From Akkermansia muciniphila (GTDB lineage: Bacteria > Verrucomicrobiota > Verrucomicrobiia > Limisphaerales > SIAT01), in assembly GCA_945860945.1 (NCBI GenBank), contig CAMASG010000002.1:19086-83085 (forward strand): 64,000 nucleotides of DNA. Reading direction: 5' to 3'. Positions 1,860-55,202 of this stretch are shown here, piece by piece. Below the pieces are notes generated by a model that was given only the letters and a program-made list of their open reading frames with translations, was not told where the DNA came from and made no database searches. Position numbers and translations under genes: made by a program. Positions within the stretch are counted from its first letter, which is position 1. The number at the start of each line of letters is the position of its first letter.

Positions 1860-3235
1860 AGCCCCATTCGAAACAGGCGCTGGTCCGTTTACAACGGCGA
1901 TTGCCGGCCGGCGAACTTCGTTTGGACGCAGCAACATTACAGGCCCACGCCGGCGATAAATGGTTTGCCAGCCATCTGCCCGACGCCGTGGCGTTGCCGC
2001 GCAGCACCAAATCGGTCTCGGCCATTCTCCGTTTTGCCCACGAGCACCGCATCCCGATCACCGCGCGCGGGGCGGGGCACGGCTACGTGGGCGGCTGCGT
2101 GCCTATTCATGGAGGCATCGCCCTTTCGCTGGCGCGGATGAACCGACTCAAGGAAATCAACGCGCGTGATTTCGTTGCGGTGGTTGGCCCGGGTGTGCTG
2201 ACAAAGCAGCTTCAGGACGCTGCGGAGAAAAAGAATCTTTATTACCCACCCGATCCGGCGAGCCGCGCCGATTGCAGTCTCGGCGGCAACATCGCAACCA
2301 ACGCCGGCGGTCCGCGCTGTTTGAAATACGGCGTCACGCGCGATTACGTTCTCGGCTTGGAAGTAGTGTTGGCCAATGGCACGGTGGTCCGGCTCGGCGG
2401 CCGCACGCACAAGAACAAGACCGGTTTCGATCTCGCCCGCTTTTTCGTGGGCTCGGAAGGAATGCTCGGCGTGGTGACCGAGGCGACTTTAAAACTTCTG
2501 CCGTTGCCGCCGTTTCGCGCCTGTCTCGGTGTTGGTTTCACTCAGATGAGTGATGCCGTGCGTACCGTGCAGGCGATATTCCAAGCCGGTTTTCTGCCGT
2601 GTGCATTGGAAATCGCGGACCAATTCACACTCGCTGCCGCACGTAAACGTACAGGCAGCGACCGGCTCACAGGTTGCAACGCTTTCCTTTTTGTCGAGCT
2701 GGACGGTCAGGAGAAATCGGTTCGCCAAGAGCTGCCTGCCGTCGAACAAATCATCCGCGGCTTCTCGCCCGTTTCCACGGACCGAGCGCTCGGCGCAGTG
2801 GCTGTCGAGCAGTTGTGGGGACTGCGCCGCGAGTTTTCTTATTCGCTGCGCGACACCGGCCTCACCAAACTGAATGAGGACATTGTTGTGCCGCGTGGGA
2901 AGCTTGAGGAATTATTTCGGCTCGCGAAACGGATTCAGAAAAAGCACGGATTTCCCGTAGCTTGTTTCGGTCACGCTGGTGACGGGAACATCCACGTGAA
3001 CGTGATGGTGGACGAGACGCAGGCGGGCTACGAACTGCCGCGTGACGCTGCCCTCGACGAGTTGTTCCGTGGCGTACTCCGTCTTGGCGGCGTCATCACC
3101 GGCGAGCACGGCATTGGTCTGGCGAAGAAGCGCTGGTGGCCGCTGGCGGTCTCGCCCGAGGTGCGCGAGTTGCATCGTGTGGTGAAGCACTCTCTCGATC
3201 CGCATGGCGTACTGAACCCCGGCAAGTTTGTCTGA
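1856..3235 (+). CDS. FAD-linked oxidase, GlcD / D-lactate dehydrogenase family
   Basis: 459 aa. FAD-binding PCMH region (ITARGAGHGYVGG, GGNIATNAGGPRCLKYG) and C-terminal GEHGIGLAKK motif. Confidence 0.85.
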   Translation: MKPHSKQALVRLQRRLPAGELRLDAATLQAHAGDKWFASHLPDAVALPRSTKSVSAILRFAHEHRIPITARGAGHGYVGGCVPIHGGIALSLARMNRLKEINARDFVAVVGPGVLTKQLQDAAEKKNLYYPPDPASRADCSLGGNIATNAGGPRCLKYGVTRDYVLGLEVVLANGTVVRLGGRTHKNKTGFDLARFFVGSEGMLGVVTEATLKLLPLPPFRACLGVGFTQMSDAVRTVQAIFQAGFLPCALEIADQFTLAAARKRTGSDRLTGCNAFLFVELDGQEKSVRQELPAVEQIIRGFSPVSTDRALGAVAVEQLWGLRREFSYSLRDTGLTKLNEDIVVPRGKLEELFRLAKRIQKKHGFPVACFGHAGDGNIHVNVMVDETQAGYELPRDAALDELFRGVLRLGGVITGEHGIGLAKKRWWPLAVSPEVRELHRVVKHSLDPHGVLNPGKFV

Positions 3236-3257
3236 ACGGCGTTTTCGGAAATAAAAA

Positions 3258-3279
3258 AGCCGCCAGCGAACTGGTGACT
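3258..3279 (-). terminator. Probable intrinsic terminator of the RRM-protein gene, between convergent genes
   Basis: Imperfect hairpin agccgccag-cgaa-ctggtgact (one mismatch, one G-T pair). It is preceded on the + strand by ataaaaaa, which gives a U-tract on the minus-strand transcript just after the 3300 stop. Confidence 0.5.
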
Positions 3280-3299
3280 TTGTGAGCTTCAAAATGGGA

Positions 3300-3590
3300 T
3301 CAGCTCTTAGTGGCGATCGAGCCATCACCCGGAGGACGCTCTTCGCGCGGTCGCGCTTCGTTGATGGTCAGGTTGCGGCCTTGAAAATCCTGGCCGTGGA
3401 ACATCTCGATTGCCTTCGTGGCGGCTTCTTGGGAATCCATATCCACGAAGGAGAATCCGCGCGACCGGCCTGTCTGTTTGTCGATCATCATGTTGACTGA
3501 GATGACGACGCCCGCTTGACCGAAGTGGGTTTGAAGGTCATTTTGCGTGGCGTTGTAGGGGAGGTTTCCGACGAACAGGCGTATTGGCAT
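3300..3590 (-). CDS. RRM-type RNA-binding protein
   Basis: RNP2 LFVGNL and RNP1 RGFSFVDM. The start is moved to the internal ATG at 3590 (MPIRLFVGNL); the track's 17-aa extension has no support. Confidence 0.85.
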   Translation of the reverse strand: MPIRLFVGNLPYNATQNDLQTHFGQAGVVISVNMMIDKQTGRSRGFSFVDMDSQEAATKAIEMFHGQDFQGRNLTINEARPREERPPGDGSIATKS

Positions 3591-13706: not shown

Positions 13707-13781
13707 GGGTTGGTAGCTCAATGGTAGAGCATCTGGCTTTTAACCAGGTGGTTCCGGGTTCGAGTCCCGGCCAACCCACCA
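13707..13781 (+). tRNA. tRNA-Lys (anticodon UUU), CCA encoded
   Basis: Hand-folded cloverleaf: acceptor GGGTTGG/CCAACCC, D arm GCTC-AATGGTA-GAGC, anticodon arm TCTGG-CTTTTAA-CCAGG, T arm CCGGG-TTCGAGT-CCCGG, discriminator A, then CCA. Confidence 0.95.
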
Positions 13782-18726: not shown

Positions 18727-18753
18727 AAAGCGCAGCGGAACCCGCTGCGCTTT
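18727..18753 (-). terminator. Intrinsic terminator after the thioredoxin-like gene
   Basis: Minus-strand RNA reads GCGCAGCGG-guu-CCGCUGCGC followed by UUUUUGCUUGUU: a 9-bp GC stem with flanking A/U pairs, 27 nt past the 18780 stop. Confidence 0.8.
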
Positions 18754-20701: not shown

Positions 20702-20775
20702 GCGGGTGTAGCTCAATGGTAGAGCCCCAGTTTTCCAAACTGGCCACGAGGGTTCGATTCCCTTCACCCGCTCCA
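20702..20775 (+). tRNA. tRNA-Gly (anticodon UCC), CCA encoded
   Basis: Hand-folded: acceptor GCGGGTG/CACCCGC, D arm GCTC-AATGGTA-GAGC, anticodon arm CCAGT-TTTCCAA-ACTGG, T arm GAGGG-TTCGATT-CCCTT, discriminator T, then CCA. Confidence 0.95.
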
Positions 20776-26345: not shown

Positions 26346-26377
26346 AACCCCTCCATCCGCGTGCGGATGGAGGGGTT
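26346..26377. terminator. Bidirectional intrinsic terminator between convergent genes
   Basis: Perfect 12-bp stem cccctccatccg / cggatggagggg with loop cgtg, extended by AA/TT pairs. T-rich runs follow on both strands: ttgattctt on the + strand, ttcttgtttt on the - strand. Confidence 0.85.
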
Positions 26378-44884: not shown

Positions 44885-44909
44885 ATAAAAAAGTCGGGAA
44901 AACCCGACT
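44885..44909 (-). terminator. Canonical intrinsic terminator inside the nusA 5' leader (candidate attenuator)
   Basis: Minus-strand RNA reads AAGUCGGG-uuuu-CCCGACUU followed by UUUUUAUU. The U-tract ends about 38 nt upstream of the nusA ATG. Confidence 0.8.
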
Positions 44910-45049
44910 TTCACACGCTGGCGACCCAGCAACTGATTCACCGACAAGTCCACTGTAGGCAATGGGCAAAATGCCGTCAAGGTTCATTTCCTTTGGACGG
45001 TACGGATTGGCGGCTTGCGGTCCCTGTATTGCTCCGCTAGCTTCGCGGG

Positions 45050-52886: not shown

Positions 52887-53770
52887 TGTTCGAGCTTGGT
52901 TTCCAACACCGTTTCGCTGTTCGAGATTACGATCTCGCCGCGACGCTTGGCTGCGGTCAGGCCTTCCGCTGGCAACAGGTGGGCGATGCGTGGGAAGGGG
53001 TCGTGGCCGGACGCTGGGTGAGTCTGCGCCAACCCGATACCGATTCGATTCTCGCCACCGCCGCCGCGCCTCAAACGGATTGGGAATGGCTTGCCGATTA
53101 TCTACAAACGGAAGTCGAGTTGCCCATCGTGCTCGCGACGTTTCCCGATGACGAACCGATGCGCGCCGCCGTGGCGCATTGCCGCGGCCTGCGTCTGTTG
53201 CGTCAGGAACCGTGGGAATGTCTCGTCTCGTTCATCTGTTCCTCGACGAAGCAGATCGTGCAGATCCGGCAGATCATCGCGCTGCTCAGCGAGCATTTTG
53301 GTGAAGCCGTCGCCGTCCCGAGCGGTCACGCGCCCGCCTTCGCTTTTCCATCGCCGGACCGCCTCGCCGCTGCGAGCGAAGTCCAACTGCGCGCGTGCAA
53401 GATGGGTTTTCGCGCGCCGTATGTGCGCCACGCCGCGCAACAAATCGTCAGTGGCGGCCTACGTCTTGTCGATTTGCACGCGCATTCCTGCGCGGTGGCG
53501 CGCGACGAGTTGCAGCAACTCAACGGGGTCGGTCGCAAAATCGCCGATTGCGTGCTGCTGTTCGCGTATGGTTTTCAGAAAGCGTTCCCCGTGGATGTCT
53601 GGGTGATGAAAGCGCTGCGGCAGCTCTACTTTCCGCGCCGTCGTCCCACACCGCACCGGCTCCGCAGTTTCTCCGAGACCCACTTCGGCCCGAACGCCGG
53701 CTACGCGCAGCAATATCTTTTCCACTACATGCGCACCCGCCCGCGCAGTAAGCCGCGCGGCAAGAAATGA
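52886..53770 (+). CDS. ogg: 8-oxoguanine DNA glycosylase (HhH-GPD family)
   Basis: HhH-GPD region LQQLNGVGRKIADCVLLFAY...FPVDVWV. TGATG junction with the upstream gene. Confidence 0.75.
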   Translation: MFELGFQHRFAVRDYDLAATLGCGQAFRWQQVGDAWEGVVAGRWVSLRQPDTDSILATAAAPQTDWEWLADYLQTEVELPIVLATFPDDEPMRAAVAHCRGLRLLRQEPWECLVSFICSSTKQIVQIRQIIALLSEHFGEAVAVPSGHAPAFAFPSPDRLAAASEVQLRACKMGFRAPYVRHAAQQIVSGGLRLVDLHAHSCAVARDELQQLNGVGRKIADCVLLFAYGFQKAFPVDVWVMKALRQLYFPRRRPTPHRLRSFSETHFGPNAGYAQQYLFHYMRTRPRSKPRGKK

Positions 53771-54540
53771 ACGCCCCCACGACAACATCGCTGGAAGTTC
53801 TGTTCACACCGGCCGAGTTCGAGGCGCTTTCATCGCGCGATCTTTCGGGCACGACCTGCGTTGTGTTCGACGTGCTCCGCGCCACAAGTTCGATGATCAC
53901 GGCGCTGGCCAACGGCGCCGAGGCGATCCTCCCCGCGGCCGATATTCCCGAGGCGCTGGAGATCCATCGGCAACGGCCGGAAGTGCTTTTGGCGGGCGAG
54001 CGAGAAGGTCTTCGGATCGGCAGGGAACTCACCGGCAGCGTCGCTTTCGACCTCGGCAATTCACCCCGCGAGTTCACCGCGGAAAGGGTGGCCGCCCGGA
54101 CTATCGCGATGACCACCACCAACGGCACGCGCGCACTCAAGGCCTGCGCGAACGCCCGCACCGTGCTGATTGGCGCGTTCCTGAATCTCGGCGCTCTCAC
54201 GGCGTGGATTGACCGCGAGCGCCCTAGCCGCCTCCTCCTCGTCTGCAGCGGCACCCGCGAAGAAGCATCGTACGAGGACACGCTCGGCGCCGGCGCCCTG
54301 TGCGCCGCCGTGTGGAGTTCCTACGCTTCAGGGCACGTGGCTGATTCCGCCCAGATCGCCCGCGAGATTTACCTTGCTGCCAAGGGTGACCTGCTCGCGG
54401 CCGCCGGTCGCCACGCCCGTAACGCGCGCCGACTGCTGGAGATCCCCGAACTTCGGGACGATGTGGTCTTCTGCCTGCGACCCGACGCCTATCCCATCCT
54501 TGCCTCGATGGGGAAAGACGGTCGCGTGCGGTGTGGCTAA
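53767..54540 (+). CDS. comB: 2-phosphosulfolactate phosphatase family protein (ComB-like)
   Basis: VVFDVLRATSSMITALANGA and MTTTNGTRAL are typical of the ComB family. ATGA junction with ogg. Confidence 0.7.
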   Translation: MNAPTTTSLEVLFTPAEFEALSSRDLSGTTCVVFDVLRATSSMITALANGAEAILPAADIPEALEIHRQRPEVLLAGEREGLRIGRELTGSVAFDLGNSPREFTAERVAARTIAMTTTNGTRALKACANARTVLIGAFLNLGALTAWIDRERPSRLLLVCSGTREEASYEDTLGAGALCAAVWSSYASGHVADSAQIAREIYLAAKGDLLAAAGRHARNARRLLEIPELRDDVVFCLRPDAYPILASMGKDGRVRCG

Positions 54541-54615
54541 GGTTTTCGCCTTAAACCGGCTGAAAACAAGGGCAATGAAGCTCAGCCAACGCCAATCGCA
54601 CACAAGACACAACTC

Positions 54616-54715
54616 GGAACACGAGTCTTCCTAGATGGAACTAGAATGTTCTTAGGCGGAACATGATAGTTCCGATTAGGAGCGGACGCGTTCCGACTTG
54701 GAACCTGCAAGTTCC
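54616..54715. repeat. Array of five GGAAC-N6-GTTCC palindromes with an exact 21-bp period
   Basis: Read directly: GGAACacgagtCTTCC (54616), GGAACtagaatGTTCT (54637), GGAACatgataGTTCC (54658), GGAGCggacgcGTTCC (54679), GGAACctgcaaGTTCC (54700). The cores and 5-nt linkers are not conserved. Confidence 0.9.
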
Positions 54716-54754
54716 GCGTCATCTCACGCATCCGCAGGGTGCAACATCATCAGT

Positions 54755-55090
54755 TCAGTCAACCTGCATGCAGCCCCAACCATCCGGTTCGCCGCCCACG
54801 GACTCCGCGTGCGCGGTCAATCCCGTCTCGAGCGCGGTGATGTCTTCGTGTGTTGGAATCATATGGTGCTTCACGATAGTTTCCCACATCTCCCGTTCCT
54901 CGTAGTAGGAGATGCAAATCTCAAGCGCTCGATCGTCCAGAATCTCGGCGAAGGCGAGAGCCTGTTTTCGCTCTGGAAAAACAAAGCAGAAATCCACCAC
55001 ACGCGGCTGGGTGAGGTCATCGCCGCCGTCCTGCATCTGGCGCAGCACGTCGCCATTTTCGTCGGCTGGGAATTCGAGAGGTTCGCTCAT
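54755..55090 (-). CDS. RraB-like (regulator of ribonuclease activity B family) protein
   Basis: 111 aa from ATG 55090. An acidic N-terminus is followed by PRVVDFCFVFPERKQALAFAEIL, resembling the RraB family. Confidence 0.6.
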   Translation of the reverse strand: MSEPLEFPADENGDVLRQMQDGGDDLTQPRVVDFCFVFPERKQALAFAEILDDRALEICISYYEEREMWETIVKHHMIPTHEDITALETGLTAHAESVGGEPDGWGCMQVD

Positions 55091-55202
55091 GATAATCGTA
55101 GTGTGGCCTGTGGGCCGTCTTTCAAAATGACGTTGAGTGATGCTAGTGCGATGGAATAAGTCCGACAATCGGGGGCGCGATGGAAGGAGAGCCGCGACGG
55201 AA

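Follow-up and report, generated by a model that had tools for sequence, protein, structure and literature searches.

A phased palindromic array between convergent genes

The window analysed here is a stretch of 64,000 nucleotides from contig CAMASG010000002.1. At positions 54616-54715 it holds an array of five short palindromes, situated in the gap between a gene for a ComB-like 2-phosphosulfolactate phosphatase and a gene of the RraB family, whose 3' ends converge on it. The gap measures 214 bp between the stop codons at 54540 (+ strand) and 54755 (- strand). Its guanine-plus-cytosine (GC) content is 51%, compared with 61% for the window, in agreement with the initial annotation of this DNA, which described the gap as poorer in GC than its surroundings; the RraB gene shares this low GC relative to the flanks. 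The array is very probably a member of a dispersed family of such arrays that was inserted here, and not a regulator specific to the locus.

Each unit is a dyad of the form GGAAC-N6-GTTCC, and the units follow one another with an exact 21-bp period; the sequence is as first described, with two perfect units and three that carry a single arm mismatch. When the whole window was searched for GGAAC-N6-GTTCC with at most one mismatch, the five sites of the array were the sole matches, against 2.4 expected by chance. The chance of four more matches falling at exactly +21, +42, +63 and +84 is estimated at ~(2.44/64000)^4, or ~1e-18. In a lag-autocorrelation scan, no other periodic signal of the window ranks above the array, whose identity at lag 21 is 0.60. 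It was not detected by Tandem Repeats Finder (TRF), because the repetition is confined to the arms. Cores and linkers are near random, with mean pairwise identities between units of 0.27 and 0.37, respectively; the linkers read tagat, taggc, gatta and gactt, with gcgtc after unit 5. The spacing of half-site centres alternates between 11 and 10 bp. No convincing inverted repeats bracket the gap.

A family of arrays with a 21-bp step

To count as a member of the family, an array had to have three or more units with GGAAY/RTTCC arms, a core of 6 nt and a linker of 5 nt, follow a step of exactly 21 bp, and lack conservation in its cores and linkers; the window array shows all of these features. 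Two collections were scanned for the pattern: one holding a single genome per species, and a metagenome collection, whose complete scan gave 54 loci in total. Among the matches listed for the two there are at least ~25 distinct arrays of the same architecture, with near-random cores and 3-16 units. The hosts are genomes of the Verrucomicrobiota and Acidobacteriota, along with unclassified metagenome contigs. An Opitutaceae metagenome-assembled genome (MAG) has at least two arrays, L024 (15 units) and L025 (~11 units), some of whose units resemble units 4 and 5 of the window array (cores ggacgc and ctgcaa); the unit 4 core itself is also present in both. Other named sources are a Verrucomicrobiia MAG (L106), a Limisphaerales MAG (L084) and a member of Acidobacteria gp4 (L010). 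Four array-bearing contigs (L153, L154, L171 and L180) come from one soil metagenome sample. More uniform cores are seen in arrays from a Phycisphaera MAG (L101) and a Methylomirabilia MAG (L019). A literature search found no mention of the motif and no report of phased 21-bp palindromic arrays, and this family, scattered at gene ends in soil bacteria, is apparently undescribed.

Conservation was analysed in 173 units from 18 arrays. The arms agree with the GGAAC/GTTCC consensus at 90% of positions, and the main variants, GGAAT and ATTCC, affect the innermost arm position. Of the 110 steps from one unit to the next, 109 have a length divisible by 21 bp (99 of 21, nine of 42 and one of 63); the remaining step is 64. 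The core is 6 nt long in every unit, and many arrays have near-random cores and linkers. What the initial annotation proposed for the window, namely that the half-site and a two-turn spacing are conserved and no recently duplicated block is present, thus holds family-wide. It had also named as a contrary outcome a generic REP-like palindrome without phasing (REP, repetitive extragenic palindrome); instead, phasing is what defines the family.

In two pairs of homologous arrays, the arms are identical at 157/180 positions and the cores and linkers at 151/198 (chi-square ~7.5, p ~0.006). Since arm identity exceeds that of cores and linkers in these pairs, the arms are under some purifying selection, which is not strict. 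The Acidobacteria-like arrays tend to have RTGCAY as core and RGSCY as linker. As both sequences are palindromes, dyad axes lie 10.5 bp apart; AA/TT steps have this same interval, with GC or pyrimidine-purine steps in between.

Several other repeats built on GGAAC and GTTCC were encountered. Porphyromonas uenonis and related MAGs (L006, L015, L027, L066, L087 and others) carry a fully conserved 22-bp unit, GGAAC-tgaaaa-GTTCC-tccctt, at 25 or more loci; these have 3-6 tandem units and conserved ends, and form a high-copy dispersed family. In the Spirochaetaceae, GGAAC-N6-GTTCC occurs in fully conserved 23-bp tandem units. Sporosarcina sp. BI001-red has a near-perfect 21-bp array of more than 35 units, GGAAC-gagcgg-GTTCC-tcgtg, on the contiguous segments L029 7431-8000 and L109 20-245. 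These repeats are treated as phenomena separate from the present family. Finally, L161 (2520-2619), L167 and L178 share a 42-bp tandem repeat with two GGAAC-N6-GTTCC dyads per unit; as it lies within a 263-amino-acid open reading frame (ORF) and is 89-94% conserved among the three contigs, it is probably a coding repeat.

An insertion restricted to one lineage

All 13 contigs of the same species, which derive from different samples and have flanks ~99-100% identical to those of the window, contain the 214-bp gap and five units. Copy number is therefore constant among them, and only four positions inside the array vary. One of these is 54627, which is G in 8 of the 13, making the right arm of unit 1 perfect; the C of the window is the minority allele.

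Relatives present a different picture. Contig L189 keeps the convergent RraB and ComB genes, and the 3' end of its RraB gene aligns closely with that of the window, with homology ending ~25 bp past the RraB stop; its gap is 63 bp and has no array. In L120 (ComB 93% identical) both RraB and the array are missing, and a single TTGTCC-N6-GGACAA palindrome follows the ComB stop. A 20-bp gap without an array is found in L124-126 (ComB 77% identical). In L123 (ComB 79% identical), the gap between ComB and a NUDIX gene holds five 42-bp units of a TTGTCC/GGACAA-type palindrome with 13-bp arms, AATTGCCTTGTCC-N6-GGACAAGCTAATT, at 3222-3434. Arrays with yet other arms occur in L181 (1690-1882; TGCCCC-N4-GGGGMA) and L190 (~2880-3040; CCGCG-AAAAW-CGCGG, with one unit flipped), both with a 21/42-bp step. 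The arrays of L181, L190 and L123 directly follow RraB or ComB stop codons, and at three of the seven distinct loci with an RraB homologue a palindromic array stands immediately past the RraB stop, with different arms in each.

Because every same-species contig carries the array and the relatives do not, the array is, on comparison of these sequences, a lineage-specific insertion in a 3'-to-3' gap and not a conserved feature of the locus. That the insertion was recent is well supported. A comparison of orthologous loci had been put forward in the initial annotation as a check, with absence from close relatives counting against its proposal; on this point the proposal fails, as the array is missing from relatives that share the gene order of the window (L189, L120 and L124-126). 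Thus, the window array does not represent a conserved regulator of either ComB or RraB.

Genomic context and mobility

Most arrays start 13-40 bp past a stop codon, often between convergent genes. The flanking genes are unrelated to one another and encode, for example, a HEAT-repeat protein, MgsA, an Ig-domain surface protein, a peptidase and WG-repeat proteins; no gene common to the array neighbourhoods was found. Array blocks are, however, shared between contexts that are otherwise unrelated. L132 and L145 have in common a block of ~380 bp that includes the array, with 82% identity, and flanks that are unrelated. Similarly, L106 and L159 share the array and a 124-amino-acid ORF, the array block being 82% identical and the flanks again unrelated. 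It follows that array blocks move between loci or genomes. The uniformity of arrays such as L024 suggests that they expanded recently through tandem duplication, and the pairs L132/L145 and L153/L154 suggest that some arrays are surrounded by conserved boundary segments.

The 124-amino-acid ORF (L106 2973-3344; L159 4721-5095) is conserved, has no Pfam match and lies downstream of the array; in L159 it stands between an Xre-type helix-turn-helix gene and a gene for a HerA-like ATPase. In L010 (features at 1199-2314 and 2657-3463), the array lies 70 bp downstream of a TnpB gene of the insertion sequence (IS) IS605 type (Cas12f1-like TNB) and faces an IstB-like gene, and is therefore in a mobile-element neighbourhood. 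No Pfam match to the Y1 transposase family, to which REP-associated tyrosine transposases (RAYTs) belong, was obtained among the ORFs scanned, which were the seven nearest the window array and ten flanking five other arrays; the transposon gene of L010 is a tnpB and not a tnpA. A hairpin with a ~30-bp stem, TGTCAGTACCGCCTGCGGTAGCGGGCGGGT...ACCCGCCCGCTACCGCAGGCGGTACTGACA, occurs in L153 (~2590-2665), in L164 (reverse strand) and in L171 (~1118-1252). It adjoins two arrays and is present at a third site, and represents a second repeat family in the same organisms.

The gap and its neighbouring genes

The features of the locus are collected in Table 1.

Table 1. Features of the ComB/RraB gap and of the two genes that border it, in window coordinates
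Feature	Position	Strand	Sequence	Description
2-phosphosulfolactate phosphatase (ComB-like) gene, PF04029	53767..54540	+		3' end toward array
Gap head, non-repeat, adjoining ComB stop	54541..54615	no strand		Contains modest hairpin at 54541-54567, -9.4 kcal/mol
Whole array	54616..54715	no strand		Five 16-bp dyads GGAAY-N6-RTTCC, exact 21-bp step
Unit 1	54616..54631		GGAACacgagtCTTCC	One arm mismatch; right-arm base 54627 is C in window
Unit 2	54637..54652		GGAACtagaatGTTCT	Single arm mismatch
Unit 3	54658..54673		GGAACatgataGTTCC	Perfect palindrome
Unit 4	54679..54694		GGAGCggacgcGTTCC	Single arm mismatch
Unit 5	54700..54715		GGAACctgcaaGTTCC	Perfect palindrome
Gap tail, array to RraB stop	54716..54754	no strand		~25 bp nearest the stop homologous to array-less L189
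RraB-family gene, PF06877	54755..55090	-		3' end toward array; 111 amino acids, length taken from homologues

The homology of part of the tail to L189 places the indel boundary within the tail. Neither head nor tail has a match in the rest of the window or in the ~190 loci fetched, which form a limited database. The head hairpin was considered as a conserved terminator and rejected, being disrupted in the population variant L199. Hairpins that resemble terminators do occur elsewhere in the window, at 18727-18753, 26346-26377 and 44890-44911, with energies of -13 to -28 kcal/mol; the first and last of these have A-runs and T-runs at opposite ends and so appear bidirectional. No comparable hairpin was found in the ComB/RraB gap.

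Pfam assigns the ORFs around the array to ComB, RraB, NUDIX, KsgA, an aminotransferase and OGG, and the homologues of ComB point to a Pedosphaera-like verrucomicrobium (Limisphaerales). The RraB ORF was listed from a TTG at 55168 (- strand, 137 amino acids). Its homologues all have ~111-116 amino acids, and one protein of 111 amino acids is 100% identical to that of the window; the true start is for this reason probably the ATG at 55090. The ComB gene is itself mosaic: across 53763-54462, identity to the same-species contigs L121 and L122 falls to 68-91% per 100 bp, between flanks that are 99-100% identical. This pattern of identity suggests that homologous replacement took place directly next to the array. 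The only Rfam matches in the window at the gathering threshold are two transfer RNA genes on the + strand (13707-13778 and 20702-20772).

A putative lattice on double-stranded DNA

Tentatively, the arrays are best regarded as a minisatellite resembling REPs and bacterial interspersed mosaic elements (BIMEs), in which constraint acts on double-stranded DNA and the arms form a putative lattice for a symmetric protein. Constraint on the double strand is suggested because only the half-sites and the exact spacing are kept, the stems show no covariation and the hairpins are weak. In such a lattice, half-sites of alternating orientation would follow at intervals of 10.5 bp and share a single helical face; AA/TT steps would keep the same phase, separated by flexible steps of the pyrimidine-purine or GC type. 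A putative dyad-symmetric protein would bind or wrap these half-sites cooperatively, so that half-sites and spacing would be maintained as cores and linkers drifted to randomness. The arrays sit at the ends of transcription units, and their behaviour as a family suggests that they grow through slippage or unequal exchange and travel as blocks between loci and genomes. One part of the initial annotation survives here, since an array for a dimeric protein on one helical face is still the best fit to the constraints seen in the sequences; its suggestion of an iteron set, centromere or operator belonging to this locus does not.

A number of observations weigh against the lattice. In Verrucomicrobia-like units, core position 4 is C in 84%, and the mirror position is G in only 44%, a polarity not expected from a purely symmetric dimer. 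This polarity has no consistent relation to the direction of the upstream gene, being opposite in L024 and L025, which belong to one genome. Selection on the arms of homologous pairs is modest (87% vs 76%), and some arrays, such as L159, are visibly decaying. The family is rare overall, given the metagenome total above and a single array in the 64-kb window. The position of arrays shortly past stop codons is the one expected of an RNA element of the 3' untranslated region (3' UTR) too. Finally, the three further arm families in Pedosphaera-like contigs share the 21/42-bp step. A common 21-bp quantum suggests a shared cause other than one sequence-specific protein. Helical phasing, a generating mechanism that acts like a ruler, and insertion that is neutral to the reading frame (21 bp being seven codons) are candidates for it.

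A bolder extension of the lattice is that the arrays are sequence-encoded tracks on which a conserved architectural or topological protein docks, marking where transcription units end in the Verrucomicrobiota and Acidobacteriota, as a boundary system with no described counterpart. This is improbable on present evidence. It would concern the GGAAC family, known from named genomes of both phyla, and at least three other arm families of Pedosphaera-like genomes. Candidate proteins would be a gyrase-like wrapping enzyme or a filament-forming protein with dyad symmetry.

Alternative explanations

The arrays might instead act at the level of RNA, as an element in the 3' UTR of the RraB and/or ComB mRNA that terminates transcription, blocks exonucleases or stabilises the message. 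This is rather unlikely, although REPs downstream of genes have been reported as 3'-UTR terminators and stabilisers (bioRxiv 10.64898/2026.03.23.713779; PMC3733652) and the usual placement of the arrays past stop codons, often between convergent genes, is in keeping with it. So is the lack of a canonical terminator hairpin in a gap whose window has such hairpins elsewhere. On either strand, the gap as a whole gives a better fold than its shuffled controls do (z = -5.2 and -4.0); however, the fold predicted does not consist of hairpins in a row, as units pair with each other (-46.8 kcal/mol, vs -25.6 kcal/mol for five separate hairpins), and the single-unit hairpins, with 5-bp stems, are weak (-2.6 to -9.2 kcal/mol). 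The arm variants of L101 are exclusively G-U-compatible (10 vs 0). Elsewhere one and the same array contains both G-T and A-C variants, with no consistent strand-specific G-U bias, and there is no covariation at 5/12, the only variable stem pair (odds ratio 1.45, p = 0.58). The lengths of loops and linkers are exactly fixed, which RNA hairpins do not need, and core polarity relative to the upstream gene is opposite in the two arrays of the Opitutaceae MAG. Rfam returned nothing relevant at the array at either gathering or permissive thresholds, and scans for sigma-70 promoters and terminators gave no promoter and only one weak terminator-like site. The initial annotation had offered five consecutive RNA hairpins, or a small RNA acting as a sponge, as a second possibility; the weak units, the pairing between units, the lack of covariation and of an Rfam match, and the location of GGA in stems all speak against it.

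A little less probable again is that the arrays are selfish or neutral minisatellites, whose arms are the sites of a transposase or recombinase encoded elsewhere, either RAYT-like or IS-related. An enzyme of this kind would create and spread arrays, which would persist wherever insertion is harmless, a scenario to which the same doubt attaches. Much in the distribution of the arrays is consistent with it: presence and absence vary among close relatives, blocks are common to unrelated contexts, several arm families exist in related genomes, and young homogeneous arrays (L024) stand alongside old ones with random cores. The array of L010 lies near IS605-type TnpB and IstB-like genes, and there are precedents in REP/RAYT (PMC3333891) and BrickBuilt (PMC4596501). 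Neutral decay, however, does not predict a 90% arm consensus alongside saturated cores, nor the slower evolution of the arms. Despite this saturation of substitutions, there is one single-base shift in 110 steps and no variant in core length. The window locus lacks terminal inverted repeats, a shared leader or tail, a GTAG/CGTC tag and an adjoining transposase gene. A MITE, or miniature inverted-repeat transposable element, was rejected as an identity for the window array on similar grounds, as terminal inverted repeats are missing and head and tail are not common to other loci.

It is very unlikely that the array is a site specific to this locus, whether an operator array, an iteron set, a centromere-like site, or a stand-alone small RNA or protein sponge. 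Phased dyads are typical of such systems, and a GGA triplet does recur each 21 nt. Nevertheless, the array is missing from orthologous loci and similar arrays are present in many unrelated contexts. There are no rep or par genes near the array, no promoter-like site, no Rfam match and no GC-skew switch at the array, and no match was found among 72,556 plasmids (PLSDB); these results, with the absence from relatives, likewise count against the iteron, centromere and operator suggested originally. An origin or terminus site was rejected because the GC-skew switch is missing. Association with phage was rejected, there being only two matches among 2.9 million viral contigs. To our knowledge, LexA boxes, extracytoplasmic function sigma factor -35 elements, Type I restriction sites and CRP-type sites have spacings or orientations unlike those of the array, and none explains it.

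It is next to inconceivable that the small ORF at 54582-54731 (- strand, 49 amino acids) encodes a peptide of RNxxVPx heptads, since its frame, open in the window, holds stops in L024 and L010, the heptad arises automatically from the palindrome on either strand, a phmmer search of 1.84 billion proteins gave 22 weak and heterogeneous matches with none at E <= 1e-30, and conservation is at the nucleotide level, as Val is encoded by GTT and Asn by AAC throughout, in a genome of 61% GC.

The chromosome biology of the Verrucomicrobiota and Acidobacteriota is almost unstudied. If the lattice on double-stranded DNA is real, the arrays would provide a sequence-defined bait for an unknown architectural or topology-related DNA-binding protein, and would add a strictly helically phased form to the REP/BIME concept. 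If they are merely selfish, they would mark recombination-prone junctions, and may break assemblies and yield spurious ORFs with heptad repeats.

Comparison with known systems

Arrays spaced by two helical turns are known in several settings, among them the 20-21-bp operators of GlpR/DeoR, the ARG boxes of ArgR (21-bp step), plasmid iterons, and parC/sopC. Such phased operator, iteron and centromere arrays are found in promoters, origins or partition loci beside their cognate genes, and are conserved with them. BIME arrays of E. coli are reported to be bound by gyrase or IHF in a manner comparable to that of the proposed lattice. The window array is like the phased operator and iteron arrays in having dyads two helical turns apart on one face, for which cooperative binding is proposed here by analogy; functionally, it may be most like tandem two-turn operator arrays. 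It differs in that it lies between two 3' ends, is not conserved, recurs in unrelated contexts and has no plasmid match. A GGA about every 20 nt also recalls the sponge RNAs CsrB and RsmZ; here, however, GGA is in stems and not loops, and the array has no promoter or terminator of its own, no Rfam match and no conservation.

Of the known systems, REPs and BIMEs come closest. REPs are imperfect palindromes of 20-40 bp with a 6-13-bp stem, and for REPs and BIMEs a part in supercoiling, termination and mRNA stability has been proposed (PMC3733652); a role at the level of RNA, in the 3' UTR, has been shown for REPs of E. coli (bioRxiv 10.64898/2026.03.23.713779). REP families are present in the verrucomicrobium Opitutus terrae, tandem REPs with 5-bp stems occur in Thauera, and head-to-tail REP dimers are rare (PMC3733652). 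Like REPs and BIMEs, the present arrays are short palindromes clustered in intergenic DNA, mainly downstream of genes, with convergent or co-directional neighbours; their presence varies among strains and species, and there can be several families per genome. The differences lie in architecture. The unit of the window array is a 16-bp dyad with 5-bp arms, for which the Thauera GTAG-1 element, with its 5-bp stems, is the sole comparable case cited, and the GTAG/CGTC tag that REPs bear unpaired at one end of the unit is present neither in the window linkers nor in the position matrix of the family. The units are strictly head-to-tail at exactly 21 bp; since the 5-bp arms are symmetric, head and tail are not defined within a unit. 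Loops and linkers, family-specific in REPs, are random here. Copy number appears low, whereas REPs are spread through genomes in high copy.

BrickBuilt of Porphyromonas gingivalis is a minisatellite inside a MITE, with tandem units of ~22-23 nt without spacers, at multiple loci (PMC4596501). The 22-bp loci of Porphyromonas described above (at least 25) are similar to it. In BrickBuilt the leader and the tail carry terminal inverted repeats and the unit is conserved throughout, whereas the window array is without such inverted repeats, has a head and tail not found elsewhere and conserves its arms alone. The arrays are distinct in architecture from REPs, BIMEs and MITE-borne minisatellites, and resemble them in behaviour.

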